Below, one piece after another: positions 1,097 to 61,233 of a stretch of 64,000 nucleotides of DNA (the first letter of the stretch is position 1; each line of letters starts with the position of its first letter). The stretch comes from a virus. Below the pieces are notes generated by a model that saw only the letters and a program-made list of their open reading frames with translations, made no database searches and was not told where the DNA came from. The position numbers and the translations under genes were made by a program. The stretch covers positions 32,001-96,000 of IMG/VR virus record IMGVR_UViG_3300006316_000001. One strand, given 5' to 3'.

Positions 1097-1166
1097 AGGG
1101 AAGTCTGTTACCATTAACGCTTTACCCTATAAGACACATTATACTCTTTTTATTGGAAAAGTAAAG
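1097..1166 (-). promoter_or_regulatory. Early promoter plus 5' leader hairpin (long class)
   Basis: CTTTAC(1166-1161)-N17-TATAAT(1143-1138), then AUAGGG-UA-AAG-C-GUUA-AUGG-UAAC-AGA-CUU-CCCU. Confidence 0.85.
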
Positions 1167-1190
1167 CGTTTTTAGTAACTTTTTAAAAAT

Positions 1191-1219
1191 AAAAAAAGGC
1201 TCCCCGAAGGAAGCCTTTT
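1191..1219 (-). terminator. Rho-independent terminator
   Basis: AAAAAAAGGCT..CC-CGAA-GG..AGCCTTTTT stem flanked by A/T tracts. Confidence 0.75.
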
Positions 1220-1228
1220 AATGTGGTT

Positions 1229-1432
1229 TTAGAATTGCCTGAAGAACCAACCGATTAATGCAAGAACTGCACAAATTGATAGCGCAATACCTATCACAAC
1301 CACGGAAAATACTATGAAGCATATGTAAGAGATAAGCATCACGGCAAACTCAGCCCATCGGCAAATTGTTGATGCTATCCAAAGAATTGTTGCTGCTAAC
1401 CATTCAATACAATCAAGTGATTTACTTAGCAT
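1229..1432 (-). CDS. Small membrane protein
   Basis: Almost entirely hydrophobic 67-aa ORF coupled to upstream gene. Confidence 0.5.
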   Translation of the reverse strand: MLSKSLDCIEWLAATILWIASTICRWAEFAVMLISYICFIVFSVVVIGIALSICAVLALIGWFFRQF

Positions 1433-1950
1433 GGTATACCCTCACACAAGTCAGGTTTTCTATTACATACACGATAAAGCGGTTTCTTTATGCGCTGCCC
1501 TTTGATCTTAACGTCAGCGCCTTTATAGCCAACGCGAGTCAATTGGCGCTTGACACCAGTCAACTCATTAATGTATGGGCTATTGATTCCGCGATTGTAA
1601 AGAGAAATCAACTTTTCCAATTTGAAATATTCGCAACGGCTATTCATGACATGGAATCGCCCATTATCATTCGGCCATGTTGTCAAATAAAGACCTATGC
1701 TGTTAGCAAAAGCATTGAGTTTGTGCCAATGCTTTATGTCTATTCTCAATTTATGTTTTTGCTCAAATGTTTGTTTGCTCATTTCTGATACTCCTTCCAA
1801 ACTAGCCGTGTATGTCACGGTTCCCTTAATGGTATGTGACGTTATACGTGGCTCTTGGTTGGTGGGCGCTGGATGTATTTGTTTACCATCTATTGTCAAA
1901 GTACACACATCCGTGATTGTCACACCATTCACTTCTATTTCTATGCTCAT
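1426..1950 (-). CDS. Hypothetical early protein
   Basis: ATGA-coupled ORF in leftward array. Confidence 0.55.
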   Translation of the reverse strand: MSIEIEVNGVTITDVCTLTIDGKQIHPAPTNQEPRITSHTIKGTVTYTASLEGVSEMSKQTFEQKHKLRIDIKHWHKLNAFANSIGLYLTTWPNDNGRFHVMNSRCEYFKLEKLISLYNRGINSPYINELTGVKRQLTRVGYKGADVKIKGQRIKKPLYRVCNRKPDLCEGIPC

Positions 1951-2252
1951 GATATTGGCCTATATGCTATTTCCGATTGTCTGATATCTTCCTTTTCCCA
2001 GTCATCCGGACAACGCACCAGTAACCCGTCCCGAATGCAATGATCGTTAATTCTCCACACATCATTGTGTAGTGAACCCCTAATCTCGATGTACCGCTTA
2101 CCTTCGATAGCAACTATTGGAGGGGTGTGCTCCCCAAAATGGATATAAGTATCGTCATGGTCATCACGACCATTCAGAATTTCATCTTCACCAATAACGC
2201 ACGCCTCTAGAGCCATTTCGCCACTCAAAGTATTTCTTGGATCAATCATCAC
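1947..2252 (-). CDS. Hypothetical early protein
   Basis: Tightly packed ORF in leftward array. Confidence 0.55.
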   Translation of the reverse strand: MMIDPRNTLSGEMALEACVIGEDEILNGRDDHDDTYIHFGEHTPPIVAIEGKRYIEIRGSLHNDVWRINDHCIRDGLLVRCPDDWEKEDIRQSEIAYRPIS

Positions 2253-2255
2253 ATT

Positions 2256-2549
2256 CTACCCGAAAAGAGGACTAATGCTACTCTCAGCCAATTCCACATA
2301 CACATCACCGTGGCATGGTTTAGGCTTACAGAAACATCCTAGTCGTTTGCCTTGAAGAGAGTTGACCCGATCCCTGAATTCAGGGTCGGTATTATACCGA
2401 TGTATCGCGTACTCTCTATGTTTAGCGATAGACTGGGTTCTACCCAGCCCACCGAATGGATTACCGAAGTAGCCATCGCAACCATGCCCAGCCCTTCCGA
2501 TGTATACATCATATTCGTCAGTCTTGAGATTCACTACTGTTGTTTGCAT
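2256..2549 (-). CDS. DUF4326 domain protein
   Basis: Motifs YDVYIGR..GYFGNPF and LQGKRLGCFCKPKPCHGDV characteristic of DUF4326. Confidence 0.85.
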   Translation of the reverse strand: MQTTVVNLKTDEYDVYIGRAGHGCDGYFGNPFGGLGRTQSIAKHREYAIHRYNTDPEFRDRVNSLQGKRLGCFCKPKPCHGDVYVELAESSISPLFG

Positions 2550-4260: not shown

Positions 4261-4319
4261 AGGGGTTAACCGCTAACCCCTATAACAATCATTATACTCT
4301 TATTTTACGAGAAGTAAAG
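4261..4319 (-). promoter_or_regulatory. Early promoter plus 5' leader hairpin (short class)
   Basis: CTTTAC(4319-4314)-N17-TATAAT(4296-4291), then AUAGGGG-UUAG-CGG-UUAA-CCCCU. Confidence 0.85.
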
Positions 4320-5914: not shown

Positions 5915-6133
5915 TTAGCCATTTCTAATACCTCTTCTAATTTCTGATGCGCAAGTACCACACTTTGCTCGTTTAGGTTCTGGTGCAGTTTCATTCTTAG
6001 CCAATTCACTCGGGACATAACGGTACTCTTCATGTCCACATTCTAGAGTTAGTTCCCACCACCAAGAGCGTGTACTACGAACAAAACCAGTGCACCCACA
6101 ACATAGGGATGCCTCAACCACTTTACGCATCAT
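5915..6133 (-). CDS. Small Cys/His zinc-ribbon-like protein
   Basis: LTLECGH ... KCGTC motif. Confidence 0.5.
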   Translation of the reverse strand: MMRKVVEASLCCGCTGFVRSTRSWWWELTLECGHEEYRYVPSELAKNETAPEPKRAKCGTCASEIRRGIRNG

Positions 6134-6353
6134 CTTGAATATCCTCCAATCGAGTTATCTTATGGAAGTCTGTCTCCACCGACTGGCCAACTTCTAGTGT
6201 TAGTACGTGCCCATTCCAGAACCATCGATCATCCATGGTAGATCCCTTTACGGTTTTCTCTGATGTCAACCATGTCGGTGCATCATTCTCAGTGAATGTT
6301 TTCGCCTCAGAATCTTCCGGCCAGAATAGTGACACCATTTTGAAGCGCATCAT
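6123..6353 (-). CDS. Hypothetical early protein
   Basis: ATGA-coupled ORF. Confidence 0.5.
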   Translation of the reverse strand: MMRFKMVSLFWPEDSEAKTFTENDAPTWLTSEKTVKGSTMDDRWFWNGHVLTLEVGQSVETDFHKITRLEDIQDDA

Positions 6354-6700: not shown

Positions 6701-6919
6701 TTAGTCCTCCTCATGTCCTAAAGCGTGATATATGCCCACCATTATCCAAAATATGAGCCAAATACAAGTGGAAACGAGAAATGATGAGATTATCATATCA
6801 GTCTGAGAGATCACCACCTCAGAATCGATTATCTTTGCATCCCATAACCACCAGAAAACTGCGGTATATTCTAACCAAAGAAATATAGCAGCCAAAAATG
6901 TCTTTTGCTTTTTATTCAT
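6701..6919 (-). CDS. Small two-TM membrane protein
   Basis: AGGAG SD; two hydrophobic helices. Confidence 0.55.
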   Translation of the reverse strand: MNKKQKTFLAAIFLWLEYTAVFWWLWDAKIIDSEVVISQTDMIISSFLVSTCIWLIFWIMVGIYHALGHEED

Positions 6920-7140
6920 GATAGCTCCTAATAACCACGCTTCTTCTTTTTGGCGAGTATTTTGGACTTGACGCGACGTTCGTATTCAGAATTGCCTGAT
7001 GTGCGCAATAAAAAGTCTTCATAACTCTCACCACGCTTACTCAGGTCAGCGCCAGCAGGTTTGTTGAATCTTCCTGTATAACCCATTCTATGATTTCCCC
7101 TTCTTCATAATTAAACACCTAGTTCTTTATCACAACAACC

Positions 7141-7169
7141 ATTATACTCTCTTTATTCAAAAAGTAAAG
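7141..7169 (-). promoter_or_regulatory. Early sigma70-type promoter
   Basis: CTTTAC(7169-7164)-N17-TATAAT(7146-7141). Confidence 0.8.
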
Positions 7170-7234: not shown

Positions 7235-7236
7235 CA

Positions 7237-9109: not shown

Positions 9110-9426
9110 TGTTTATCTCCTATCATTAGGTTGTACCATAATTGTGCCCTTTGTGTAAGCTCTACACATATGACACATTCAGCAATGTCGGCAATCTTAC
9201 CATCATCATCTAGCTTAATCGCCTCTAGACCATCAATAAGATCTTGAGCGATAGACATCTGGGAAAGCTTCCAATTCGGATCTACCTCTGCCTCAGATAT
9301 CACCATTCGCAATTCTTTTATTGCCTGAACCAATGAGGCTATAACCTCGAATCCTTGCTTATTGTTGTCTGTTTCCATTACATTCTCTCCACGATCACTG
9401 ATACAATGAATGCTATCACGATACAA
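9106..9426 (-). CDS. Hypothetical early protein (start probably about 9378)
   Basis: GGAG SD before METDNN. Confidence 0.5.
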   Translation of the reverse strand: MYRDSIHCISDRGENVMETDNNKQGFEVIASLVQAIKELRMVISEAEVDPNWKLSQMSIAQDLIDGLEAIKLDDDGKIADIAECVICVELTQRAQLWYNLMIGDKQ

Positions 9427-9548: not shown

Positions 9549-9588
9549 CGATCAGGAACCATTCCCAATCCTTAGAACCATTATACTC
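9549..9588 (-). promoter_or_regulatory. Variant early promoter (-10 only) with 5' leader hairpin
   Basis: GAGTATAAT at 9588-9580 without CTTTAC; transcript would begin GAUUGGGAA-UGG-UUCCUGAUC. Confidence 0.5.
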
Positions 9589-11220: not shown

Positions 11221-11523
11221 CTAGTATTTAGAAATGTGTTGTACAGTAACGCGATTCGTACCAGTCTCTCGAACCGCAATCTGAAGCCAATCGTAGTCTT
11301 TATTCTTCAGGCTGAATACACGGTAGCCTTCGTCAAGAAGTGCTCTAGCTGGTTCATCAGGTTGGGCGAAGATTAACTCATTGGTCACTGAGTTGTTCAC
11401 TTCGTACTCAGAGATGTAGTCACCTGAATCAGATTTGATTTCAGCGTTCTTACCGCCACCAATAACATTCACAAGGCGCATTGTAGTGCCGCGTGGTATA
11501 GTGATATTTAGTTCGTGTTTCAT
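11221..11523 (-). CDS. Hypothetical early protein
   Basis: First ATG downstream of promoter at 11574-11602. Confidence 0.6.
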   Translation of the reverse strand: MKHELNITIPRGTTMRLVNVIGGGKNAEIKSDSGDYISEYEVNNSVTNELIFAQPDEPARALLDEGYRVFSLKNKDYDWLQIAVRETGTNRVTVQHISKY

Positions 11524-11545
11524 AATTGGAGCCTTAATGATTAGG

Positions 11546-11602
11546 AGGGCTAACAACTAACCCTATAGCAACCATTATACTCTTATTAGCGGAGAAGTAA
11601 AG
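11546..11602 (-). promoter_or_regulatory. Early promoter plus 5' leader hairpin (short class)
   Basis: CTTTAC(11602-11597)-N17-TATAAT(11579-11574), then AUAGGG-UUAG-UUG-UUAG-CCCU. Confidence 0.85.
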
Positions 11603-11661: not shown

Positions 11662-12018
11662 TTATTTTGAGCTGAGTTTGGGACTAAATTCCTCTTGTTC
11701 ATAACTCCCATCACGTTGTAGTATTATGGAGATACCATTATCCTTTAGTCTTCTCTCCAATAATTGAAGTTTGTGGCGGAAATCCTTGCGGTCACTCTTA
11801 AATGCCCCAAATTTACTCCAGTTCAGAATGTTATCCAAGATATCTGCAATACTTGCGGGTGCGGCAGTTACTTTACTGTGTTTGAACATTAATATCTTGC
11901 CCGTTTCTCTATCTCGAAGACACGCTTCAATTTGGTCATGACCAACATACGAGAACATCTCAACACGACCTTCAACAATGAATGTACCTTCCTTATCATA
12001 TTTACAAGACATAATCAA
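11662..12018 (-). CDS. Hypothetical protein downstream of sigma factor
   Basis: Coupled ORF followed by a hairpin at about 11627-11651. Confidence 0.55.
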   Translation of the reverse strand: MIMSCKYDKEGTFIVEGRVEMFSYVGHDQIEACLRDRETGKILMFKHSKVTAAPASIADILDNILNWSKFGAFKSDRKDFRHKLQLLERRLKDNGISIILQRDGSYEQEEFSPKLSSK

Positions 12019-12923
12019 CCCTTATTATCTTCAGTGATGAAATCATCAAAGTGAACATCAGCCAAGTCAACGTAGAATCGAAGTTTCGATAAGCCATCAT
12101 TTTGAAGTTGACGGATTCGTTCTCGTGTTAGACCGAAGTGTTGACCACACTCTTCTAGTGTTTGATCTTCAAAGTAGCGCATTCTGATGATCTCGGAAAT
12201 GCGAGGTTTGATCACACCAAGATAAGTGTTCACATATTTATTGAATGCTTCAGGATCAACATTCAGCGCGTTACCATCTTCATCGGCTATGTGATCGTGA
12301 TGATCTAAGAAGTCCATAGGTTTACCATCGTCACCTTCAACGATTAGTTCATCGAAGCCTCTGATCGAACCACACATGAGTTTGATTGCGCTTCGGATAG
12401 ACGTTCTAGTCAGACATGATTCATTGAGGTTCTTTTCTTTGACGTACGCAGAAATGATGTCAATGGCATCAACAGAATCAACAACCGTATTGGCTTGGCG
12501 AAGAGCTGCACGGGAAACCTGCATAGCACGACCAATGTGAACAGGATATCTCATGAATTGGTCAACGTGACCTTCCATCATGTATCGTACTATACTCTGA
12601 CGAATCCATTGCATTGAGTACGTTGATAGTTTGAAGCCGCTTTGAATGTCGAATTTATCGATAGCGATCATCAGACCCATCATACCTTGGTTAAATAGGT
12701 CAAGGTAAAACTCCTCACGGCCAGCACCTGAATATTTTCTGGCCATCTTACTAACCAGTTTGATATTGTGCTTGATCAGCTCATCGCGAGCCCAAGCAAC
12801 CTGACCCTGTTGCCATAAATCGATTAGGATTAGCTCACGCCCTTTCTCAAGAACGGAATGATCCATGTAAGGTTTGAACATCTCAGGAAGTTCAATTCTA
12901 ACTACTTTTTGTTTAGCTCTCAT
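12015..12923 (-). CDS. Phage-encoded RNA polymerase sigma factor (sigma70 family)
   Basis: Region 2 (HNIKLVSKMARKY, DLFNQGMMGLMIAIDKFD..GFKLSTYSMQWIRQSI) and region 4 HTH (TLEECGQHFGLTRERIRQL); ATG 12923 overlaps upstream TGA. Confidence 0.92.
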   Translation of the reverse strand: MRAKQKVVRIELPEMFKPYMDHSVLEKGRELILIDLWQQGQVAWARDELIKHNIKLVSKMARKYSGAGREEFYLDLFNQGMMGLMIAIDKFDIQSGFKLSTYSMQWIRQSIVRYMMEGHVDQFMRYPVHIGRAMQVSRAALRQANTVVDSVDAIDIISAYVKEKNLNESCLTRTSIRSAIKLMCGSIRGFDELIVEGDDGKPMDFLDHHDHIADEDGNALNVDPEAFNKYVNTYLGVIKPRISEIIRMRYFEDQTLEECGQHFGLTRERIRQLQNDGLSKLRFYVDLADVHFDDFITEDNKG

Positions 12924-13201
12924 ACTACGGACTCCCTGCATCCAATTAGAGAAATGTCTTCTTCGTCCTTATCTTCGAAAAATACGATATCAAGACCTTT
13001 TATCTTAAAATAATTTTTATTGGCGGTAACTTCGGCACCACCATTTTCAAACTGATCAGAAACGGCTTCAGCGTACGCAACCTGCCAATCATCATGGCTG
13101 AGTGAAACTGTCATATCACATCTACCCATTTCTTCATATCGCTTTATGATGTATTTGAGTAGTGACATAGAGAATAAGATTTCCATTACGCTTTCCCCCA
13201 T
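12920..13201 (-). CDS. Hypothetical protein (start probably 13186)
   Basis: Coupled ORF in sigma operon. Confidence 0.55.
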   Translation of the reverse strand: MGESVMEILFSMSLLKYIIKRYEEMGRCDMTVSLSHDDWQVAYAEAVSDQFENGGAEVTANKNYFKIKGLDIVFFEDKDEEDISLIGCRESVV

Positions 13202-13857: not shown

Positions 13858-13927
13858 AAGGGAAGCTGTTAACCTTAACGCTTTACCCTATAGCAACCAT
13901 TATACTCTTATAGTTTTAGAAGTAAAG
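13858..13927 (-). promoter_or_regulatory. Early promoter plus 5' leader hairpin (long class)
   Basis: CTTTAC(13927-13922)-N17-TATAAT(13904-13899), then AUAGGG-UA-AAGC-GUUA-AGGU-UAAC-A-GCUU-CCCU. Confidence 0.85.
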
Positions 13928-14325: not shown

Positions 14326-14356
14326 TTTCAATAGAAGGCTAATAGGAAGGAAAGTG
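14326..14356 (+). promoter_or_regulatory. Putative late promoter / direct repeat, copy 1
   Basis: TTTCAATAGAAGGCTAATAGGAAGG (25 bp) identical to 15595-15619; both copies lie upstream of rightward units. Confidence 0.6.
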
Positions 14357-15594: not shown

Positions 15595-15625
15595 TTTCAA
15601 TAGAAGGCTAATAGGAAGGGAAGTG
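15595..15625 (+). promoter_or_regulatory. Putative late promoter / direct repeat, copy 2
   Basis: Identical 25-mer to 14326-14350; 31 bp with one mismatch. Confidence 0.6.
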
Positions 15626-45216: not shown

Positions 45217-47475
45217 ATGGACAAGATAATCACTTCTAGTGTGAGTGGGCGAGTCCCCACAACCACTAATTTGAGCACCCAACAGGTGGCGGTTAATACT
45301 GCTGATGGTGCAATTTATGCTAATGATGGTAATGGTAACATTATTCAATTAAACACCACCATTGATAGTGACCTAAACTTCAAGGGTGCTATAACAATAA
45401 CATCAGAGACCACGCCCGAAGTTCCTGATGTTAACACACATAGACAGGGTGATTATTACGTTCTTTCCAATCCTGATAATTACTCAGATTGGAACGGGTA
45501 CGGACAAATTTTTAACCAAGACATGTTAATGCATAATGGTACGACATGGCAAGTATCATCAAGTAAAGAAGCATTTGATGGAATCTACGTCAATATCGAT
45601 GGTGACCAGATGAACGGTCCATTGACCTTGCCGTCGGGTACACCAACCAATGATAATCATGCCACGAATAAAAAGTTCGTCACTGACTTAGATGCCACTA
45701 GCGTTAAACTATCCGGAAATCAGAACGTTTCAGGTCGTAAACGCTTTACAACCACAGACTCTTTAAAAGTACCCGTTGGTGACACTTCAGAGCGCGGTAC
45801 TGGTGAAATGGGTGCATTTCGCTTTAATTCTGACACTGGTGAAGCTGAGATGCACAACGGTGTTGAATGGGCTTCTGTTGGTGGTGGAGGTATTCCTGAA
45901 TATGTCATCAAAACGATAGGTTCAACATATAGTCTAGATAGAAATGCTGGTGTTCTAGTTGACACCACTTCAACTGGCGGTGACGTCACAATCACATTAC
46001 CTGATAATGGTGATGGTGTGATTGCTGGTGATTGGATATCTATTGGTATGTATACCACTGCTGATCACAATATCATCATCAAGTCTTCTGATCATAAAAT
46101 TATGGGACTGTCTGAGGATTTCGTAATTAATGTTGACTACCAAGTACTGACATTCAGTTTTGTCGATACGGTTGTTGGGTGGAAAATAGTACAGGCTGTC
46201 GGTGAATCGGAATCGCCTCAAGCTGTTAAGACAGTTGTGAAAGGTACGTATGAAAAGGGGACTACCACATTCGATATTGTTTATGATGTTGGATATGTTG
46301 ACGTGTTTGTCGGTGGCTTCAAGCTGGCCGACACAGAGTACACCGCGGATGATGGTGCGACTGTTGTTCTAAATAACGGTCTAATGGTGGAATCTTACGT
46401 CTATATCCAAGCATGGAACCACATGGGTGTTGAAGAGATTAACAGTGGCATGGTGTTATACGATGACACTAATTCTGATCTGAGTGTGGATACCGTTAAA
46501 GCCGCTCTAGATGTTGTGACCAAGAAGTCAGAGTTGTTGGATAAAGTGTTGACTGAATACGCTAACCCTAACCTAATTATTAATGGTGACATGGGTGTTT
46601 GGCAACGAAGTACAGACTTTACAGGCAAAAGTGGCTATCAATCAGTTGACCGTTGGAGACATACATCAAGCACTACCCGCGTTCAGCGATGGGACTACCC
46701 CACAGGTGCAATCCTAACAAAGTATGCTGCTTCAGTCTCCGGAACGGGAACGTACATCGGTATTGAGCAACGTATTGAGGAAGGGTACAAACTTATTGGT
46801 CAACAGATAACTTTTAGTTTCCAAGCAGACTTTGATAGTTCTGACGACCCTTATGTATTCTTACGTTTCCATAAAATCTCAGATGGTTCAGTTATTTCTA
46901 CTGGAATATCTATCCCAATAGTTACAACGTCGGGATGGAATCGATACATCTACACTGTGGATTTAGATGATCTGACAGAAGATGTAGATGTAGATGCTGA
47001 TGATGTTATGTTAAAGGTTCAGATAATAGGTAACGGCTCCAATACTGCAACATCAGAGTTCAGGATCACAGCGATTAAGTTGGAGTCTGGATCAGTAGCA
47101 ACTCCTTTTGTGGCTGATGATCCACAAACTAACCTTGCTAAGTGTCAGCGATACTACTATAGGGACTCTTCAGTTAATGGTACTTATGCGCCAATCTGCC
47201 CAGTGATTAAGTTTGGTGCTAGTAGTTTGATGGGTACAATTCCCTTACCAGTTAGAATGCGCATTACACCTGAATTTGTAATCTCTGACGCTGGTCACTT
47301 TCGTCTGATCGATCAAAATGCTGCGGTGCTGACAGATGTTACTAAGTACACTTATCCGTCAAAAGACCGCATCGGCATAGTAGTCGCAGCGAGCGGATTA
47401 GCTTCAGGGGATGTGGCATCAATGTTTACATTTAATAGTACTGTTGGTTGGTACGAAGCGGACGCTGAACTTTAG
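45217..47475 (+). CDS. Tail fibre with C-terminal carbohydrate-binding module
   Basis: GD.M.GPL, ATNKKFV, LKVPVG.T.ER, NLIINGDM.VWQR..DRW, KLE.G..ATPF..NLAKCQRYY. Confidence 0.75.
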   Translation: MDKIITSSVSGRVPTTTNLSTQQVAVNTADGAIYANDGNGNIIQLNTTIDSDLNFKGAITITSETTPEVPDVNTHRQGDYYVLSNPDNYSDWNGYGQIFNQDMLMHNGTTWQVSSSKEAFDGIYVNIDGDQMNGPLTLPSGTPTNDNHATNKKFVTDLDATSVKLSGNQNVSGRKRFTTTDSLKVPVGDTSERGTGEMGAFRFNSDTGEAEMHNGVEWASVGGGGIPEYVIKTIGSTYSLDRNAGVLVDTTSTGGDVTITLPDNGDGVIAGDWISIGMYTTADHNIIIKSSDHKIMGLSEDFVINVDYQVLTFSFVDTVVGWKIVQAVGESESPQAVKTVVKGTYEKGTTTFDIVYDVGYVDVFVGGFKLADTEYTADDGATVVLNNGLMVESYVYIQAWNHMGVEEINSGMVLYDDTNSDLSVDTVKAALDVVTKKSELLDKVLTEYANPNLIINGDMGVWQRSTDFTGKSGYQSVDRWRHTSSTTRVQRWDYPTGAILTKYAASVSGTGTYIGIEQRIEEGYKLIGQQITFSFQADFDSSDDPYVFLRFHKISDGSVISTGISIPIVTTSGWNRYIYTVDLDDLTEDVDVDADDVMLKVQIIGNGSNTATSEFRITAIKLESGSVATPFVADDPQTNLAKCQRYYYRDSSVNGTYAPICPVIKFGASSLMGTIPLPVRMRITPEFVISDAGHFRLIDQNAAVLTDVTKYTYPSKDRIGIVVAASGLASGDVASMFTFNSTVGWYEADAEL

Positions 47476-47505
47476 TCACTGATTATTGTCTAAGAGGAAA
47501 ATATA

Positions 47506-48510
47506 ATGAGTAATACGGGTAACTTTTTTGGTGGGGGATCATACAATCCCGACATTGAACAGAACACAAAAGATATACAGAAAATTCCTGGAAAAAACCT
47601 GTTAATTAATGGTGACTTCTCGGTTTGGCAACGAGGAGCATCATTCACTGGTTATGTGTATGGGTCAGATAGATGGGTTGGTGGTACAAATGCGGTAACT
47701 TCCAAGCAGTGGTCTGAGGATTATGGAACAGTTTGTAGGGTACGTGCTACATCTAATCCTTCAGCTGCTGTACTCCAACAAGCTGTTGAGTTACTTAATA
47801 CTGGTTTTGGTGTTGCTTATTCTCCATTCCAGAAAGAGACTACGTACACTATCACAGTCAGAGGTGATTCGGGTGGTGTTCTAGTTACGCCGAATGTTAG
47901 ATGGGCTGAGGGTACTGCAACTGCTAGTGTTCCTGCATCGAGTTCCACTTTCACCCCCAAGGCACTTGTGAGTACAGGAACAACTTGGTCATTCACAATG
48001 AATAGCGATTTAGATTCTGCGACACACAAGTGTATGGTACTCTATTTTGCTTTGGGTACGATAAATCAGGATGTTGATTTCTACGATGTGAAGCTGGAAC
48101 ATGGTGATGTGGCTACACCTTTTGTGGCTGATGACCCTGCCACTAACCTTGCTAAGTGTCAGCGCTACTTCTTTACAACAAGAGGTAGAGGTAAGTCCGG
48201 TGTATTCGGGAATGGTACAATTTCTAGTACAGCATCAGGAACATTCCAAGTAGGTGTACCTTTGCCTACATGTATGCGAGTGACGAAGGCAACAGTATCC
48301 CTATCAGGGGATCATTCCATATATGGCGTTAGTAGCGCGGGTGGTACAATTACCGAAGAAGTTACTATGACGGATGGTGGCGCAGGTGCCGACATCGGTT
48401 TCGTGGATATCATACTTCAATCAGAAAGTGCCCCTACTAATATGCGCGGCTCGGTAGCTTTCCGTGGAATGACATCAGCTTCGTATATGGACGCGGATGC
48501 AGAACTTTAA
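47506..48510 (+). CDS. Fibre/receptor-binding module paralogue 2
   Basis: NLLINGDFSVWQRG..SDRW, KLEHGDVATPF..NLAKCQRYF, terminal DAEL. Confidence 0.75.
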   Translation: MSNTGNFFGGGSYNPDIEQNTKDIQKIPGKNLLINGDFSVWQRGASFTGYVYGSDRWVGGTNAVTSKQWSEDYGTVCRVRATSNPSAAVLQQAVELLNTGFGVAYSPFQKETTYTITVRGDSGGVLVTPNVRWAEGTATASVPASSSTFTPKALVSTGTTWSFTMNSDLDSATHKCMVLYFALGTINQDVDFYDVKLEHGDVATPFVADDPATNLAKCQRYFFTTRGRGKSGVFGNGTISSTASGTFQVGVPLPTCMRVTKATVSLSGDHSIYGVSSAGGTITEEVTMTDGGAGADIGFVDIILQSESAPTNMRGSVAFRGMTSASYMDADAEL

Positions 48511-48525
48511 CGAGGGTAATACAAA

Positions 48526-49485
48526 ATGGCAACAAATATTTTTGATAGATCGCAGTTGGATTCGCGTTCTAACCCAAATCTTCTGACTAATGGTGATTTC
48601 ACGGTTTGGCAACGCGGAACAGTAAGCTCACACACCGGATTCGCTTTCGCATTAACTGCTGATAGATGGTTTACCTATGTTGGTGGTGGAACTATTACAG
48701 TGAGTGAGGGCTACGGTTACGGCTCAGGTGTACAGAAACAGGGATTCTTCATAGATTCGGATAATGGTGCCACTGATGTTCAGATAGGTCAGCGAATTGA
48801 ATCATCCATGTTTTCTAGTAATGATTTTGGATACGGAGAACAATTCACATTCTCTATTTGGGTTTATGGGGAATCAGATGATAATGATCTGGGTTTCGTA
48901 GTCAGCGTGCCGGACACCGTTGATTCCTATACTTCTGCTACAACCAAAGTAGCTGAATATTTTGGTACGCCTAAAGCGAACGAATGGACTAAACTTACTA
49001 TTACATTTCCATGGCACAAAGATTTCAATAGAGGTATGCAAATTGCTATAACGATTGCTGGCACTTTCCAGCAAGGTTTGACGTTCTCACGTGCCAAGCT
49101 GGAAACTGGACCAGTAGCCACTCCATTCATTCCGGATCATCCAGCAGTTAACCTTGCTAAGTGTCAGCGATACTACCAAGTATGGAAAAGTCTTGAAGTG
49201 GTGGGTATGGCAAACGTGTATACATCATCTAATCATGGTTTACACATAACGCCCATAGTAACAATGAGAACCACCCCTTTGGTTGATTTTAACCAACTCT
49301 ACGTCCTCGCCCAAGGAGGGTCTGGTGATGTTGGGATAATCTCATCCAGTAACGTAATCATCAAACCTCACTCCGTGTATGCTACTTTAGGTACTGGTGC
49401 TATTTCTGGTGCTGTTGCGGGTATGGCGTTGTCTTGTCGCGTACAGGGTGGAGCCACTTTTTATCTAGACGCGGAAATTTTCTAA
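48526..49485 (+). CDS. Fibre/receptor-binding module paralogue 3
   Basis: NLLTNGDFTVWQRG..ADRW, KLETGPVATPF..NLAKCQRYY, terminal DAEIF. Confidence 0.75.
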   Translation: MATNIFDRSQLDSRSNPNLLTNGDFTVWQRGTVSSHTGFAFALTADRWFTYVGGGTITVSEGYGYGSGVQKQGFFIDSDNGATDVQIGQRIESSMFSSNDFGYGEQFTFSIWVYGESDDNDLGFVVSVPDTVDSYTSATTKVAEYFGTPKANEWTKLTITFPWHKDFNRGMQIAITIAGTFQQGLTFSRAKLETGPVATPFIPDHPAVNLAKCQRYYQVWKSLEVVGMANVYTSSNHGLHITPIVTMRTTPLVDFNQLYVLAQGGSGDVGIISSSNVIIKPHSVYATLGTGAISGAVAGMALSCRVQGGATFYLDAEIF

Positions 49486-54897: not shown

Positions 54898-55332
54898 CTA
54901 AATAACATTGATTTTTCGCGCTATTTTATGAATTATTAGCTTCCAAATTGGCATATTAATATATTGGCTTAACTTTAGATTTACAGCTTCTAAATCATCA
55001 GTTAATTTAGCTATTTTAGCATTTCTCTTGTCGATAATTTCGCTTGAACGCATCACACTACCTTCAAGAAGGTTGATTGAGTGGCGCAGTTCTTCTATCA
55101 TAACTAGGGGTACACCAAGATATTGTTCAACTTCCGGTGACCAAGAAAGATACATATCTCTTTTGGTGATGTGGTTGTATATCTTGACTACTGGAATCGA
55201 CGTGACATCTTCTAGAACCACGAATTCAACATTACCATTGATGACCGGAACTACTTTATCCTTATCATCAATCTCTACTAGTTCAGCTTGGTTGATTGCC
55301 GTACAACTTTTCGTGGTTATTGTGTCAACCAT
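54898..55332 (-). CDS. Hypothetical coiled-coil protein
   Basis: MVDTIT start after upstream stop; the longer call overlaps 55343..55573. Confidence 0.5.
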   Translation of the reverse strand: MVDTITTKSCTAINQAELVEIDDKDKVVPVINGNVEFVVLEDVTSIPVVKIYNHITKRDMYLSWSPEVEQYLGVPLVMIEELRHSINLLEGSVMRSSEIIDKRNAKIAKLTDDLEAVNLKLSQYINMPIWKLIIHKIARKINVI

Positions 55333-55542
55333 TATACATTCTTTACTCATCGTCAGATTCCATATTATGGTTGTAAAACCCAATACAAATATTGCATCTG
55401 GATTCATCAACATCTTCATGTAACATGCGATCACCGCATTCATCGCATCGCTTCTTAAGTTTACCTCCACACCATCTATTAGGGCAGAGGATTAGGGCAG
55501 CCAATATAAGGCTACCCAAGATAAGTGCCACCCACAATTCCA

Positions 55543-56163
55543 TTATGATTCCTTCTTGTATTTTGCTAGCCACACATCCTGCTTATCTGTCGGAGTACCC
55601 GAAGCCACGTTGAATGATTCAGCGTTCTTAATATCAGAAACTTTCAGATTTGACCATTTGATTTCTTTACCATCAACATCGATCACAAGAGGTTCTTTCT
55701 TGTTACCACGCCCCTTTGAAACTCGAGATTGTTCAATCCAATTCTTTTGAGACTCTGAAGGAGTACCATTATATTCGATGGTTTCGGCACCTTTCAGAAT
55801 GGAAGTTCTTAGATCAGCGTATTTGTATTCTTTACCATCAACAGTAACAATTAGACCCTTGCGAGTTTTCTTTTCAGTTTTGACAAGAACATCAGCAGCT
55901 TTACCAGTAGGAGCTAGCTCATCAACATTTTCTTCTTTGCGTGTTACGACCAGATGACCAAAACCTTCAATCACGTTGTGAGCCATCTTGGTGATACGCT
56001 CTTCAGCTTTTGCGCGAGAAGCGAATTTCTTAACGTTCTTCTCGCCAGCTAGATTAGCCAGCTTGTTATAGTCTTCAGTGATCTTCTTAGTAGGGAAAGT
56101 GGCAACACCGTTTTCGATGATAGAATTAGCTAGTTCAACAATGTGAGAATTTGTATTAGACAT
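55543..56163 (-). CDS. Basic early protein with tandem C-terminal repeat domains
   Basis: First gene behind promoter at 56225-56253; two copies of L...VDGKE.K...L..S..K.AE....GTP...Q..W. Confidence 0.65.
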   Translation of the reverse strand: MSNTNSHIVELANSIIENGVATFPTKKITEDYNKLANLAGEKNVKKFASRAKAEERITKMAHNVIEGFGHLVVTRKEENVDELAPTGKAADVLVKTEKKTRKGLIVTVDGKEYKYADLRTSILKGAETIEYNGTPSESQKNWIEQSRVSKGRGNKKEPLVIDVDGKEIKWSNLKVSDIKNAESFNVASGTPTDKQDVWLAKYKKES

Positions 56164-56182
56164 AGTATTTACCTTTTATTAG

Positions 56183-56253
56183 AAGGGAAGTTACTAACCC
56201 TTAGCACTTTACCCTATAACAATCATTATACTCTAATTGAACGAGAAGTAAAG
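56183..56253 (-). promoter_or_regulatory. Early promoter plus 5' leader hairpin (long class)
   Basis: CTTTAC(56253-56248)-N17-TATAAT(56230-56225), then AUAGGG-UA-AAGU-GCUAA-GGG-UUAGU-A-ACUU-CCCU. Confidence 0.85.
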
Positions 56254-56275
56254 CTTTTTAGCTAAATTTTTATGT

Positions 56276-56304
56276 AAAAAAGGCTCCCTATAGGGAGCCT
56301 TTTT
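56276..56304 (-). terminator. Rho-independent terminator
   Basis: AAAAAAGGCTCCC-TATA-GGGAGCCTTTTT. Confidence 0.85.
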
Positions 56305-56325
56305 GTTTGGTTTCAGTCACATGGA

Positions 56326-56667
56326 TTATTTTGGATTGCGAGATGCACGTCGAACTGGATGACGTCTCTCATCATCTTGGAGCGCAGTCTGCTCAACCTC
56401 CTCAGCATCAGGAACCATATCAGGCAACTCCTGTAACTGAGGTTCCTTTTGGAACTTCGGTTCCTGAGTTCTATCCTTATTCTCGATGCTAATAAGATGC
56501 TCAATTCGAGCGCTCATTTCCATGAACGAAACCTCACCTTGGAACCCCAACATGTTGGCTATAGAAGAAAGGATGGACTTACTATCACCATGAGCCTTAC
56601 GTTCTTTCTCAAGTTCCATTAAGATGTCGAAAGCCTGAGCTTTTACTTCAGTAATTTCTTGAGTCAT
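56326..56667 (-). CDS. Hypothetical protein downstream of ligase
   Basis: GGAG SD, coupled to ligase stop. Confidence 0.6.
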   Translation of the reverse strand: MTQEITEVKAQAFDILMELEKERKAHGDSKSILSSIANMLGFQGEVSFMEMSARIEHLISIENKDRTQEPKFQKEPQLQELPDMVPDAEEVEQTALQDDERRHPVRRASRNPK

Positions 56668-56668
56668 T

Positions 56669-58174
56669 TTACATCTCCATGATTTCTTTTAGTTCGCGGC
56701 TGGATTCTTCTTGAGCGATCATTTCTTCTAGGGTGTTAGCCTTATCTTTGTCAAAACGAATCCTAACGACACGCGCAAGGAACAGTGATTGCTTTTCACT
56801 ACCCTCAGTGATTGTGCGGGCGTTATATTCACCCTCAACAATTGCACCGATGTACTTGTTCGGGTCGAACTTCTCATCGTCTTCAACTGATGACTGCGTC
56901 ATGTTATCAGCGTTGTCCTGAATGAACACCTTCTTATACCCGCGCATTTCATCAGTTAGACCTGAGCCGATACCGGAAGCAACCATGCCACATTCAGACT
57001 CAATGTTGAACCCACCAATGCAGTTCTCATACTTTGAACCTTTCTTGCCAGGATACCAGCTAACGATACGGAATTCCGCAGGGTGAATTTCTTTGAACTT
57101 GTATTGTGAAGTGGATCTGCAATCTTCCCAATAGCCATTACCGTCTTTGACGATAGTGCCTTCTTCTTTACGTGCAAGCATTTCAGCATAGTGAATTTTC
57201 GCTTCAGCTAGGCTGCTGATCTTACGACATTCAGTCAACTTAATACGCTTGTGGTGACCAGAAGCATCGAACATGTCATCGTCATCTTCACCAATACGAC
57301 CGTCAAGGCAACGTAACTCTTCCCAACGCTCACTATATGTCTTCTTGGTGATACCTTCGCGCTTCTCAAACTCAGCGCGATCAATGATATCCCAGACAAC
57401 AAGAATAACGCGGTCTGCTTCTTCTGAGCCGATTGTGCCTGAAGATGCTTTGTTAATCACACCATTACCAGTCTGGCGTGCTGCGATTATACCGTTAGCG
57501 TCAATCACAACCAGTTCACCATCAAGGACGACATCACCACAAGATTCGGTGTATTTGCGGGCTGCGTTGGCTAATGATTGTAAACCGTGGTAGGATTTGC
57601 CGTTACGGGAACGCAATTCAATACCCTCAGTGTAACATTTGATTAGACAACGTGCGCCATCAGACTTCAATTGGCTGTATGCATTAGACCAATCAATGTT
57701 CTTGTTGATAGCCGCAGCGTTGTATGGGGAACAAAGCATACAAGGGAAGTCGGGCACAAAATCAACACCATATACCTTACGGAAAGTGTTGATTGTCGCG
57801 CCACACTTGAAGTCACGAGCAACGATCATATCAAGCATGGCTGCATCATCTTCTGGCAATCCTGATTTGATCTGTGCCAAATGTAACTTATCCGCGTTGG
57901 ATGCTGAACCCTTTGTATCAAGATACATTAGCTTCTCAATAGCATCACTCATGGTACTTTCGCGAGTTTCTTCGGTATCACCGAAAAGAAGATCAATAGG
58001 ATTTGGTGGTGGAAGATCTTCAATCTTACTTAGGTTGTATGAGATGAGTTGATTGTACGTCAATGCAACACACTCACGCAGAAACTCATTATCGGCATGC
58101 TGCTCAATGATTGCAGTCTTGGCCTTTGTACCCTTTGCTTCACGAAGTTGTTGAATAATTTTATTCGGATGCAT
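56669..58174 (-). CDS. lig: ATP-dependent DNA ligase (T4 gp30-like)
   Basis: Motif I QLKSDGAR, SRNGK, VLDGEL, VWDII, EEGTIVK, KFK, IGSGLTD, RIRFDK. Confidence 0.95.
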   Translation of the reverse strand: MHPNKIIQQLREAKGTKAKTAIIEQHADNEFLRECVALTYNQLISYNLSKIEDLPPPNPIDLLFGDTEETRESTMSDAIEKLMYLDTKGSASNADKLHLAQIKSGLPEDDAAMLDMIVARDFKCGATINTFRKVYGVDFVPDFPCMLCSPYNAAAINKNIDWSNAYSQLKSDGARCLIKCYTEGIELRSRNGKSYHGLQSLANAARKYTESCGDVVLDGELVVIDANGIIAARQTGNGVINKASSGTIGSEEADRVILVVWDIIDRAEFEKREGITKKTYSERWEELRCLDGRIGEDDDDMFDASGHHKRIKLTECRKISSLAEAKIHYAEMLARKEEGTIVKDGNGYWEDCRSTSQYKFKEIHPAEFRIVSWYPGKKGSKYENCIGGFNIESECGMVASGIGSGLTDEMRGYKKVFIQDNADNMTQSSVEDDEKFDPNKYIGAIVEGEYNARTITEGSEKQSLFLARVVRIRFDKDKANTLEEMIAQEESSRELKEIMEM

Positions 58175-58400
58175 CAGTCACGTCCTTACATTCAATTTTA
58201 TTTTCACGGTTGGCGGCTGCTTTTGCGCGACCACCTTCAAGTGTTAGTGGGCGATAATCCCATAACGGACATTTGTGTTTAGTTCTAACACCGTCGGATG
58301 GGCAATCCTCGGCTTGTTTGCGCCAAGAACCGCCACCTGCTGAACCATCATAAATGCACTGTTTACACATTTGGTCTATTGCTTGTTTTCTAGACATTGG
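58161..58400 (-). CDS. Small Cys-rich protein
   Basis: AI..MCKQCIYD....W..Q..DC....CPLW.YRP. Confidence 0.55.
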   Translation of the reverse strand, partial: PMSRKQAIDQMCKQCIYDGSAGGGSWRKQAEDCPSDGVRTKHKCPLWDYRPLTLEGGRAKAAANRENKIECKDVTDASE

Positions 58401-58605
58401 ATGCCCCCTGAATGTGGATTGTTGTAGTACCATCAGCCTCAACGCTGAAGTTGTAGAAGCTGCCGCAATACAAGAATTGGCAGTGGGTTGTACCCATAGC
58501 ATCAACCACGATAGACGTGTCGATGATGTTTACCTGACTCACTGTTACATCGTTGTTACAGTACTTGGCAAGAGCGATAGCTGCCTCAAACGTTAGTGAT
58601 TTCAT
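58390..58605 (-). CDS. Hypothetical early protein
   Basis: First gene behind promoter at 58668-58696; AAGGA SD. Confidence 0.5.
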   Translation of the reverse strand: MKSLTFEAAIALAKYCNNDVTVSQVNIIDTSIVVDAMGTTHCQFLYCGSFYNFSVEADGTTTIHIQGASNV

Positions 58606-58627
58606 AAACATTTCCTTCCGAAATGAT

Positions 58628-58696
58628 GGGGAAGTGCTAACCCTTAGCACTTTACCCCGTAAATATCATTATACTCTAATTTTACTAGAAGTAAAG
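58628..58696 (-). promoter_or_regulatory. Early promoter plus 5' leader hairpin (long class)
   Basis: CTTTAC(58696-58691)-N17-TATAAT(58673-58668), then ACGGGG-UA-AAGUGCUAA-GGG-UUAGCACUU-CCCC. Confidence 0.85.
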
Positions 58697-58700
58697 CTTT

Positions 58701-59360
58701 TTAAGAAGTTATGGAATCTAGATACTCAGCTAACCGAAGGTGTGTGTTCTGCATCATAAGAACGTCCAGCGCAATATCATGATCTTCACGGTGTTTTATT
58801 ACACAATCTGGCCATACGAATGAATCATCATACCCGTTTGGTGTGTGATCAGGATTCCATATTGTTGTTATCGCGTCAATTTCAGTACGGATATCGCGAA
58901 TGTTCCACCAAGGGAATGGTATTTCCCACCTGAAGTATTTGTAGATATTTTCTAACAGAACGATATCAAACTGTGGACCACGCGCCCAGATACGGTCACC
59001 ATTGGCATTGGGTTGGTATCCCATATCATCCAGATATTTCTGAATTCTTGGACCCATTAATGAAAGGTCAATATCTTCTGGGCTCGGGTCAATAACCATC
59101 GAACGGGCGTGAGCCTGATCAGGATTACTCCACCAATCAACTGTGCTCTGGTCCCAAGTTCGGTTGTATTTATTGAACTGCGTCTTCAAGTCAAACTTTA
59201 GACGGAGAGCATCACCAACCAATTCTTCGAATGACTTCATCTCAGATGGATCAAATACCAAGATTGCTAGTGATGGTGTTGCCGTATCGGGATTGCGTTG
59301 AGCATTACCCACAGTCTCGAAATCGAGAATGATTTGTTTAGGAGAGTTTGAATTTGTCAT
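58701..59360 (-). CDS. dexA: DEDDh 3'-5' exonuclease (T4 DexA-like)
   Basis: ILDFET, STVDWW, IWARG..FD, RDIRT, H...HDIALDVL. Confidence 0.8.
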   Translation of the reverse strand: MTNSNSPKQIILDFETVGNAQRNPDTATPSLAILVFDPSEMKSFEELVGDALRLKFDLKTQFNKYNRTWDQSTVDWWSNPDQAHARSMVIDPSPEDIDLSLMGPRIQKYLDDMGYQPNANGDRIWARGPQFDIVLLENIYKYFRWEIPFPWWNIRDIRTEIDAITTIWNPDHTPNGYDDSFVWPDCVIKHREDHDIALDVLMMQNTHLRLAEYLDSITS

Positions 59361-60063
59361 AATATTCTCTGAGGTTGTCGTTTAGTTTAGAACACATTAG
59401 ATATAAATCATCAAGCGTTCGGTTGTCTTCAAAGTCAAATCCTTCAATTGTACGTCCAGCATGAATCTTAGGTTCAACTCCAAATTTACGAATTGTCAAG
59501 ATCAGTGAATTCAAGCAGTCACCAGCAGCAACGCGACATATGATTCGGAATGACGATTCGCCGAATTTGCGACGGAACGTACCGTTTGCTCTCGCAATCA
59601 CGAACTTGTCATCAACGTTAATGGAGAATATATCATGTGATTCTGAGTGATTCATTTTCAGATGATTTTTGAGATAGTCGCGCTTGACGGTGGCGCATCC
59701 TGGATTTCGGAATGTCTTGACATGAAAGTTCAAAGTCTTACCCACAGCCACTGAGTGCTTACGCTTACCTAATTTGGCGTACACGCTCTCTCCAGGATTG
59801 GCGTATTGCATGCTCCAAGGACACTCAATACCATTACTGGCTGCTGCTGATTTAATGACTGTGAAGATTCTGTGGTTACGGTGTTCGCTGTGTGACGCTT
59901 TACCTTCTATCGCCATCATGATACGACGGGCAACTGCATAAGCCGCATCCAACGATTTTAATTTGTCTGGGAATGTTTCTTGGAATTTGGAAATCCAAAT
60001 CTTACCCTTTTGCTTTAACATCCACTCAATGTAATGGACGTAGTCTATTTCTGTGTGACGCAT
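59338..60063 (-). CDS. Hypothetical basic protein
   Basis: AGGAG SD; 241 aa. Confidence 0.6.
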   Translation of the reverse strand: MRHTEIDYVHYIEWMLKQKGKIWISKFQETFPDKLKSLDAAYAVARRIMMAIEGKASHSEHRNHRIFTVIKSAAASNGIECPWSMQYANPGESVYAKLGKRKHSVAVGKTLNFHVKTFRNPGCATVKRDYLKNHLKMNHSESHDIFSINVDDKFVIARANGTFRRKFGESSFRIICRVAAGDCLNSLILTIRKFGVEPKIHAGRTIEGFDFEDNRTLDDLYLMCSKLNDNLREYYDKFKLS

Positions 60064-60074
60064 ATCATTTCTCC

Positions 60075-60572
60075 TTAGAATTCATTGAACATTTCGCATA
60101 GAAGCTCGTTAACTTTCTCTTTACTCATCTCAGCAGCCCAACCTGCAGCCTGAACAGCATCATCAACAGACCGACCACAACAACACCAACCAGCGGAAGA
60201 GGCGGAACGAGCAGCCCTCCGCGCACCATCATCCCAACCAGCAGCCCAGCTAGAAGAATCAGCATTAAGAGCGACATCACGAGCGCATTCGGCTTTTGGG
60301 TCATTAAGAAAATTGACAATTGAGTCATACTTATCTGTGAGTGGCATTATTTTCTCAATGTTAATTAGGGCGCAATCGCATGCAAATCTTGCGATTCTAT
60401 TTGTTGGTATGGTTTTACTAGCTAACCACAATAGATCGTCGTATGTATTTGCCCCTCCAACCAATGTTTCTACTTCCACACTCTCTTCAGTGTTGTTGGT
60501 TTGTTCTATGAAACGATTAAGACCTAATTCGCAAGCATCCATTTCAATCAACTCAGATTTAGAAATTTTCAT
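60075..60572 (-). CDS. Hypothetical protein, tandem paralogue B
   Basis: N-terminus near-identical to 60609..61154, same MFNEF end. Confidence 0.7.
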   Translation of the reverse strand: MKISKSELIEMDACELGLNRFIEQTNNTEESVEVETLVGGANTYDDLLWLASKTIPTNRIARFACDCALINIEKIMPLTDKYDSIVNFLNDPKAECARDVALNADSSSWAAGWDDGARRAARSASSAGWCCCGRSVDDAVQAAGWAAEMSKEKVNELLCEMFNEF

Positions 60573-60608
60573 AATAGAATTCCATGTGTTAGGTGAAGTG
60601 TTAAGTAT

Positions 60609-61154
60609 TTAGAATTCATTGAACATTTCGCGTAGTAGGTCGTCTATGCAACTTGACCCACAAACATGTTGAGCTGACCGAGCAACATTAATGGCATGAA
60701 TCTTCGCGCTTCCAGAATATTTTGCGGAATATGCAGCAAAGGCGAACGAAACTGCAGTATTGGCGCAGGATGCACGAGAGTAGCGAGCCTTTTCGATAAA
60801 ACTAAAAGACTTTTCCCACAATTCATCCCGAATGTCTTTATTTATATCATCAAAATCGTCAGCAATATCATCACTTGAAGCGTTATTCAAAAAATCAACA
60901 ATCAAATCGTAGTTGTCTGTGTGGGGCTTGATATGATGTGCGACAATCAATGCGCAATCGTATGCAAATCTTACGATTCGGCGTTTCGGAATCTTCTTAC
61001 TCGCTAACCACAATAGATCTTCGTGCGTGTTCAGTCCACCAACCAATGAGGTCACTTCCACACTGTCTTCGGTGTTGTTGGTTTGTTCTATGAAGCGTTT
61101 AAGACCTAATTCACAAGCATCCATTTCAATTAGCTCAGATTTAGAAATTTTCAT
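60609..61154 (-). CDS. Hypothetical protein, tandem paralogue A
   Basis: First gene behind promoter at 61205-61233. Confidence 0.7.
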   Translation of the reverse strand: MKISKSELIEMDACELGLKRFIEQTNNTEDSVEVTSLVGGLNTHEDLLWLASKKIPKRRIVRFAYDCALIVAHHIKPHTDNYDLIVDFLNNASSDDIADDFDDINKDIRDELWEKSFSFIEKARYSRASCANTAVSFAFAAYSAKYSGSAKIHAINVARSAQHVCGSSCIDDLLREMFNEF

Positions 61155-61176
61155 AATAAATAGCCTTTTATTGGGA

Positions 61177-61233
61177 AGGGCTAACCGTTAACCCTATAAC
61201 AACCATTATACTCTAATTAGCCGAGAAGTAAAG
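61177..61233 (-). promoter_or_regulatory. Early promoter plus 5' leader hairpin (short class)
   Basis: CTTTAC(61233-61228)-N17-TATAAT(61210-61205), then AUAGGG-UUAA-CGG-UUAG-CCCU. Confidence 0.85.

Follow-up and report, generated by a model that had tools for sequence, protein, structure and literature searches.

The stretch analysed here, referred to below as the window, comprises 64,000 nucleotides (bases 32001-96000) of the IMG/VR virus record IMGVR_UViG_3300006316_000001, a phage genome of 106,815 bp that is rated complete, has 42% G+C, and was found in marine plankton metagenomes; its subject is a hairpin that recurs directly behind the copies of one sigma70-type promoter. The terminase, portal, and protease genes of the phage show ~65% DNA identity to those of Vibrio phages henriette 12B8, 2.058.O, and V6Aob, its head genes match HK97-type Vibrio phages, and it is not T4-like. 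Genome-wide, there are 20 near-identical promoters with the pattern CTTTACTT-N11-AGAGTATAAT, every one on the minus strand, which the promoter scan reads as TTTACT-16-TATAAT (score 10 of 12). The hairpin is present, in a short and a long size class, behind 17 of these 20 promoters, while three lack it; two further promoters, more diverged, lie beyond the 20, one of them at 9580-9585. The sequences listed for the hairpin in a preliminary description of this DNA are found at all of its positions when read as the reverse complement, the element being on the minus strand. The individual features are the following (window positions unless a genome position is given; ΔG, predicted free energy of folding in kcal/mol; z, z-score against dinucleotide shuffles).

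15-42, minus strand: cassette promoter whose long-class hairpin (genome 31975-32005, equal to L082:11975-12005) falls just outside the window
1097-1128, minus strand: long-class hairpin with 4 bp, UA bulge, ~8 bp, two 3'-side bulges, and loop AUGG; ΔG -5.7, the weakest copy
1138-1165, minus strand: promoter TTTACT-16-TATAAT of the 1097-1128 cassette, with a terminator-like hairpin upstream (~1192-1222)
4261-4281, minus strand: short-class hairpin AGGGGUUAG-CGG-UUAACCCCU; ΔG -11.2, z -2.4; promoter 4291-4318
7141-7168, minus strand: cassette-type promoter with a leader lacking the hairpin (one of three such in the genome)
9550-9570, minus strand: divergent 9-bp hairpin with a UGG triloop closed by two A-U pairs; ΔG -12, z -2.1
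9580-9585, minus strand: cassette-like -10 box TATAAT with a diverged -35 box, belonging to the 9550-9570 hairpin, whose stem starts at the 10th nucleotide after TATAAT
11546-11564, minus strand: short-class hairpin with two G-U pairs and loop UUG; ΔG -7.4 in sense vs. -3.1 in antisense; promoter 11574-11601
13859-13889, minus strand: long-class hairpin heading the operon with the sigma-factor gene (12015-12941); promoter 13899-13926
56184-56215, minus strand: long-class hairpin; promoter 56225-56252, with a canonical terminator (56277-56304) just upstream of it
58628-58658, minus strand: long-class hairpin with perfect 4 + 9 bp, UA bulge, and GGG loop; ΔG -17.2, z about -3.6; promoter 58668-58695
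61177-61195, minus strand: short-class hairpin with one U-G pair and loop CGG; ΔG -7.6 in sense vs. -3.3 in antisense; promoter 61205-61232, with a terminator upstream
genome 770-795: an extra hairpin copy behind a degenerate promoter

Each promoter is part of a longer cassette, which in the 5' to 3' direction consists of, often, a canonical terminator (G/C stem and T run; immediately upstream of the promoter in 11-12 of the 20 cassettes), an A-tract, CTTTACTT, 11 nt, AGAGTATAAT, nine bases (usually GGTTGTTAT), the hairpin, about 20 nt with AAGG or GAGG, and ATG. The extended motif aAAAAG-CTTTACTT-N11-AGAGTATAAT occurs in 20 copies, each followed by a Shine-Dalgarno (SD) sequence and a start codon. 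Whole cassettes form near-identical paralogous repeats of ~100 bp, and four copies do not differ anywhere between the start of the -35 box and the hairpin end. In most copies, whether short or long, ~19-22 nt separate the hairpin end from AUG, total leader lengths are 41-55 nt, and SD is unpaired in the predicted leader folds. A covariance model built from three long copies recovers all hairpin copies and finds nothing convincing away from promoters; simple motif counts likewise place the hairpin only behind promoters.

Two genes for transcription proteins lie downstream of such cassettes. One, for a T7-type RNA polymerase of 785 amino acids (Pfam RNA_pol, E = 2e-71), is outside the window at genome 27807-30164 on the minus strand, the promoter at 15-42 being the nearest cassette promoter upstream of it; the other, for a sigma-70-family protein with regions 2 and 4, is at 12015-12941, also on the minus strand. 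Because of these downstream genes, the cassettes are best read as early promoters for the host polymerase. The first genes behind the cassettes mostly encode small proteins without a known family (20 early proteins scanned). The presence of a sigma-70-family protein together with a T7-type single-subunit RNA polymerase is in itself unusual for a siphovirus-like genome.

Short-class hairpins have the form (A/G)GGG-UUAR-loop-UUAR-CCC(U/C), with 7-8 bp. The long class consists of (A/G)GGG, UA bulge, AAGNG-YUAR, loop, UUAR-CNCUU, and CCC(U/C), that is, 4 + 9 bp, with a single bulged base on the 3' side in five of eight copies. Predicted ΔG ranges from -5.7 to -17.2 kcal/mol, and z of single copies from -0.1 to about -3.6. 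Single-copy folds are unremarkable; what stands out is that the copies fold alike at one fixed position. When 36-nt windows are drawn at random from the genome, just 7.5% have a stem starting within the first 4 nt at ΔG of -7.5 or lower, and the architecture common to the copies at a fixed position is far beyond chance, bearing in mind that the copies are paralogues and not independent draws.

Base pairs were counted in a hand-curated structural alignment of the 15 distinct copies; a MAFFT alignment of the long class and a strand-mixing alignment made with the covariance model were not used. Among the 159 curated pairs, 146 are Watson-Crick, 13 are G-U, and none is A-C or any other mismatch; all copies being paralogues of common ancestry in one genome, these pair counts do not represent independent events. 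Double compensatory changes are seen at three pairs. The pair nearest the 5' end is A-U in nine copies and G-C in six, and covaries without exception in short and long hairpins alike; the lowest pair of the apical helix occurs as U-A and C-G, with U-G intermediates; and the fourth pair of the middle helix occurs as G-C, U-A, and C-G, plus U-G. The three swaps named in the preliminary description (AAGC/GCUU to AAGU/ACUU, GUUAA/UUAAC to GCUAA/UUAGC, and AGGG/CCCU to GGGG/CCCC) are real, and its view of the hairpin as a covarying structure in the transcribed leader agrees both with these compensatory changes and with the occurrence of G-U but never A-C combinations.

The unpaired positions of the same cassettes (59 columns) show 10 GU-type vs. 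nine AC-type transitions, and transversions are common there. The corresponding G-U to A-C ratio in pairs is 13:0, or 8:0 if the innermost pair, which cannot always close, is left out; the difference between paired and unpaired cassette positions is significant in both cases (Fisher p = 0.004 and 0.026, respectively). In 16 of 17 copies the predicted fold of the sense strand is at least as stable as that of the antisense strand; in six it is clearly the more stable of the two. As a duplex palindrome or a dimeric protein site should give both kinds of departure equally, the 13:0 ratio points to selection acting on the sense-strand hairpin, most simply as RNA, and not on a palindrome in duplex DNA. 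What the sequence shows is the hairpin structure, its constant position, and selection for pairing in the sense strand. Constraint is not uniform along the stem: the four pairs closest to the 5' end show Watson-Crick pairing throughout (60/60), and bulges, G-U pairs, and length variation are all confined to the middle and apical helices.

The first paired base of the stem is the 10th nucleotide after TATAAT in all 17 copies. The 8th nucleotide is an invariant A (17/17), preceded by T, and the 9th is U in 16 copies and C in one. An A at such a distance from the -10 box corresponds to the usual spacing and start-base preference of sigma70 promoters, and from this promoter geometry we infer that transcription starts at the A 8 nt after TATAAT. 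A start downstream of the first paired base is unlikely, since that pair covaries perfectly and hence must be transcribed. The 5' end of the transcript would then carry two unpaired nucleotides, the second of them a pyrimidine. A minimum of two unpaired 5' nucleotides is required by RppH and RNase E, three or more being preferred; RppH also favours a purine at the second position, and a 5'-terminal stem-loop prevents pyrophosphate removal (PMC8833179).

With moderate confidence, we regard the element as a 5'-terminal stem-loop that limits the access of RppH and RNase E, added to a terminator-promoter-ribosome-binding-site cassette resembling the promoter-early stem-loop (PeSL) cassettes of other phages. 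Host RNA polymerase would make early and middle mRNAs from the repeated strong sigma70-type promoter, with the hairpin at their very 5' end; with all but about two 5' nucleotides paired, such mRNAs would be poor substrates for RppH and for 5'-end-dependent cleavage by RNase E, and may live longer as a result. Ending ~20 nt before AUG, the hairpin would leave the SD site free. It would thus be one module of a repeated unit (terminator, A-tract, -35, -10, 5' hairpin, ribosome-binding site) that heads short operons, many of them beginning with small orphan genes. A block of RppH and RNase E had been considered in the preliminary description as well; it fits a stem that lies about 2 nt from the likely start and behaves as an RNA structure, although the effect on decay is something that we infer. 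The basal helix is the most and the apex and loop the least constrained part, as would be expected of an element whose task is to sequester the 5' end, and opposite to the pattern that a protein reading the loop should leave.

Several observations weigh against 5'-end protection. The start is placed by promoter geometry only. Several copies are weak, with ΔG of -5.7 to -8 kcal/mol and, for two of them, z near 0, and two unpaired nucleotides would allow partial rather than absolute protection. The evidence comes from paralogous copies of one genome only, which have a common ancestry and have probably undergone gene conversion. Leaders of distant relatives that use this promoter type are unstructured, so the hairpin is not needed for this promoter family as such. 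Simple end protection does not explain why AA-NGG-UU returns in the divergent hairpin at 9550-9570; nor does an RNA hairpin need the complementary loop ends (C..G) of the short class, which make it a near-perfect odd DNA palindrome.

The recurrent apex was the ground on which the preliminary description had proposed a protein-binding tag, pointing to a conserved NGG loop. GG is indeed found in the loop of 12 of the 15 distinct copies, and the last loop base is G in 14 of 15; yet there are eight loop variants (CGG, CUG, UUG, GGG, AGG, UGG, GG, and UU; 2-3 nt as curated, effectively 4-5 nt where the innermost pair cannot close), and apex and loop are the most variable part of the element, so that conservation was overstated and, being weak next to that of the four basal pairs, does not single out a protein. 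That the A-U-rich apex with an NGG-type triloop is an RNA tag for a phage or host protein, the GC base merely presenting it, is nevertheless conceivable, if doubtful; the binding protein could be a translational repressor or endonuclease shutting early genes off, a factor sparing phage mRNA in host shut-off, or an antiterminator. All but one of the 15 distinct copies retain YUAR/UUAR arms and the 3' loop G, the otherwise unrelated 9-bp hairpin at 9550-9570 bears the same AA-UGG-UU apex in the same register, and the long class resembles a short-class apex mounted on an additional helix, the clearest case being genome 10131-10161. Against these stand the location of most G-U pairs in the apex, the copy without any G in its loop, and the failure to recognise an RNA-binding protein family among the 20 early proteins scanned, which are far from all early genes. 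Similarity among the copies is no argument for a protein site either, because near-identical paralogous cassettes of ~100 bp are expected to be similar by common descent. A more specific form of the idea, in which two A-U pairs and the NGG-type triloop are a recognition mark common to all early mRNAs and read by a phage-encoded factor, seems to us more doubtful still; if it were true, the early class would be switched off or protected when the T7-like RNA polymerase and the sigma factor take over, by a post-transcriptional switch that acts on the whole class and is encoded at the 5' end of every transcript. The nut/put-like antitermination signal suggested in the same place fits poorly. Lambda-type nut boxB and HK022 put are antitermination RNAs, and nut has a boxA and a defined boxB pentaloop and comes in two copies, while put is a two-hairpin RNA; signals of this type work on terminators farther down a long operon. 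The present element is likewise a promoter-proximal RNA hairpin in early phage transcripts; unlike nut and put, it has no boxA-like element, its loop varies in sequence and length (2-5 nt), it occurs in 17 copies rather than two, and terminators lie directly before 11-12 of the 20 promoters. Since a terminator and a fresh promoter make most units look like separate transcription units, antitermination is unlikely; a search of Rfam gave no match for the leader hairpin, the two tRNAs alone passing the threshold and the sub-threshold matches falling on a terminator.

Other explanations do not involve a protein reading the RNA. If the inverted repeat acted as duplex DNA, a dimeric phage repressor could bind it as an operator (+3 to +21) and shut off all early promoters together; short-class copies form an almost perfect palindrome of 19 bp around a single central base pair (GGGGTTAAC-G-GTTAACCCC) and overlap the promoter region covered by RNA polymerase. 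Repeated palindromes beside phage promoters are known in other phages, e.g., Cluster O mycobacteriophages. An operator should, however, have a fixed half-site and spacing and no strand asymmetry, whereas here the departures are 13 G-T and no A-C on the sense strand with no such bias at unpaired positions, half-sites change by compensatory double substitutions (disfavoured if a protein reads the bases), arm spacing varies (centres of 1, 2, and 3 nt), and the core of the long class is set apart from the outer GGG/CCC by a bulge and a 5-bp helix; we consider an operator highly improbable. The identity of four copies from the -35 start through the hairpin would be natural for a structure with little function of its own, carried as a passenger of a mobile regulatory cassette or serving as a recombination or homogenisation site, as proposed for PeSLs; the near-identity of the ~100-bp repeats, the breaking and rejoining of metagenome contigs at cassettes, the loss of the gene directly behind one hairpin (11224-11540) in three runs from two studies, and relatives with the same promoter and no hairpin agree with this as well. 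Hitch-hiking does not, however, predict zero pair-breaking changes in 159 pairs amid many transversions at neighbouring unpaired positions, nor does it predict the G-U/A-C asymmetry, and contig breaks at repeats are also produced by assemblers, which leaves this account improbable. A role in translation, with the hairpin as a 5' clamp that insulates the ribosome-binding site from pairing with upstream or coding sequence and so gives predictable expression of any gene, would agree with the nearly constant distance from hairpin end to AUG in leaders of different length, with the unpaired SD, and with the position of the next AUG 19 nt behind the hairpin in strains lacking the first gene. The constant spacing may merely reflect whole-cassette homology, though, and insulation is compatible with mRNA stabilisation, the two roles not being separable in this analysis; taken as the function of the element, it is very unlikely in our estimation.

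Four further candidates were rejected. The hairpin is not an intrinsic terminator or attenuator, as it has no conserved U tract and a separate terminator is present upstream; the terminator scan of 55000-64000 flags none of the three leader hairpins there. Stems of just 7-13 bp do not suit RNase III. N4 virion RNA polymerase promoters are short DNA hairpins with a 3-nt loop, and this element resembles them as a short hairpin with a 3-nt loop in a phage with a T7-family polymerase; it differs from them in that the long class has 13 bp and a bulge and that the template-strand hairpin is the weaker one. In addition, the polymerase, at 785 aa, is a normal T7-type enzyme, for which a candidate duplex promoter of its own is present. 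The cassette as a whole was not accepted as the promoter of the T7-like polymerase, as the covarying first pair must be transcribed and a separate 22-bp motif fits better.

This 22-bp motif, CAATAGAAGGCTAATAGG(AAGG), has exact copies at 14329-14350 and 15598-15619 on the plus strand, flanking a capsid-paralogue gene, and a copy with two mismatches at genome 30471 on the minus strand, outside the window and just upstream of the T7-like RNA polymerase operon. It is likely to be the promoter of the phage's own polymerase. Among the transcripts from this motif, only that from 14329 would start with a hairpin.

The closest known counterparts of the cassettes are PeSLs, described in the T4-type phages RB49/phi1, PST/T4, and nt-1/KVP40, with an early promoter consensus TTTACW-N17-TAYWAT in PST/T4; the PeSL stem-loop, which works as a terminator, is situated upstream of the promoter, between the -35 and -10 boxes, or over the -10 box (PMC2839356, PMC4122927). 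The phage analysed here has, like those, many near-identical intergenic cassettes (20) with an AT-rich block, a strong sigma70-type early promoter, a stem-loop, SD, and a start codon at the end, mostly heading small orphan genes in variable regions and possibly linked to gene indels; its G/C-clamped terminator just upstream of the promoter matches the stem-loop of the PeSLs of PST and nt-1. Unlike PeSLs, the cassettes have a second, different hairpin inside the transcript at about +3, without a conserved U tract, which is not the PeSL stem-loop and which goes unmentioned in the PeSL descriptions PMC2839356 and PMC4122927. The phage also differs from PeSL phages in its HK97-type head genes and in the combination of a T7-like RNA polymerase and a sigma factor.

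The transcribed hairpin itself resembles stabilising leaders. The T7 phi10 leader is one 5'-terminal stabilising stem-loop. The ompA and papA leaders are listed among the classic stabilising 5' stem-loops in PMC3997798, where the sources listed are Emory, Bouvet & Belasco 1992, Bouvet & Belasco 1992, and Bricker & Belasco 1999. A stem-loop and an accessible ribosome-binding site are common to these three leaders and the present one, as are the proposed action through poor access of RppH and RNase E and, if the start is placed correctly, the small number of unpaired 5' nucleotides. Whereas ompA, papA, and phi10 are single genes, here one hairpin family in two size classes stands on 17 transcription units of one phage, and its stabilising role is a predicted one.

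Searches for relatives carrying the hairpin gave no match among the records covered, which may not include very close ones. Among 50,697 phage records, megablast and blastn searches with the region and with the cassette returned chance matches only; exact-pattern scans of IMG/VR and metagenome contigs gave chance or unrelated matches and no relative with the hairpin. No such cassette was seen in the first 100 kb of the 107-kb genome of Vibrio phage henriette 12B8 (~65% nucleotide identity in terminase and portal), nor any cassette at the loci around ligase homologues of 40-41% identity. A more similar ligase, of 71% identity, is encoded on a further contig. Several IMG/VR contigs with replication proteins of 30-50% amino acid identity do have the promoter CTTTACTT-N11-AGAGTATAAT, and their leaders, e.g., AAUGAAGUUAAACCUUAAUGA or UAAACUAAAUAAAAC, are conserved within a lineage but unstructured; contigs L005, L010, L013, L015, L018, L039, and L046 reuse the promoter consensus many times with the unstructured leader AAUGAAGUUAAACCUUAAUGA. 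As these relatives conserve leaders without structure, conservation of the leader within a genome is general for such cassettes and is no evidence in itself for a protein site. To judge from these contigs, the hairpin is probably a lineage-specific addition; AAUGAAGUUAAACCUUAAUGA contains GUUAA-N3-UUAA, similar to the hairpin apex, and may hold a homologous remnant of it. Two unrelated viral contigs of one metagenome (L057:846-862 and L071, minus strand, 2822-2838) have the same palindrome GGGTTAACGGTTAACCC between a promoter-like sequence and SD; one of these promoters is TTGACA-17-TATATT, and the other ends in the T7-like CACTATAGG. This may be convergence on a 5' hairpin, or chance.

Metagenome data, in which relatives of 90-95% identity are present, also show variation around the cassettes. 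In contigs from three marine metagenome runs, belonging to two studies, a clean gap with AT at the junction takes the place of the gene at 11224-11540 (~100 aa, no family), the first behind the 11574 cassette, and other indels or replacements are seen at 5924-6141, 6919-7106, and 9364-9368. Contigs break and rejoin at cassettes, with loose ends that prove to be further copies within this genome, although assembly, too, produces breaks at repeats. The absence of 11224-11540 and the breaks at cassettes fit cassette-bounded gene turnover.

Elsewhere in the window, a protein encoded at 61284-62366 on the minus strand matches Pfam ADDT (amino acid:DNA transferase), a sign that thymidine in the phage DNA may be hypermodified. 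Tandem paralogous genes of unknown function (phrog_21347) occupy 60075-60572 and 60609-61154 on the minus strand, with a 294-nt direct repeat of 77% identity. Three consecutive genes at 46570-49180 on the plus strand have common repeated segments of 85 nt and 56 nt (61-78% identity, ~1 kb apart) and look like tandem paralogues in the tail region. Two tRNA genes, tRNA-Asn(GTT) at 16576-16651 and tRNA-Met(CAT) at 17196-17273, both on the plus strand, are ~540 nt apart.

In sum, the sequence analysis confirms the hairpin as a real, RNA-level, 5'-proximal element; its most likely role, which we consider somewhat probable, is 5'-end protection of early mRNAs. No new principle is involved, both 5' stem-loop protection and PeSL cassettes being established; what is new is a transcribed hairpin module repeated in the cassette. 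If the hairpin does stabilise mRNA, the phage would have a compact, reusable expression unit, made of a terminator, a strong promoter, a protective 5' hairpin, and a ribosome-binding site, before ~17 operons. The PeSL idea of mobile regulatory cassettes would then extend to a non-T4 marine phage, with a post-transcriptional module added, and the short and long, strong and weak variants would provide a natural series for how 5' structure sets mRNA life in marine gamma-proteobacteria, and possibly parts for expression design.

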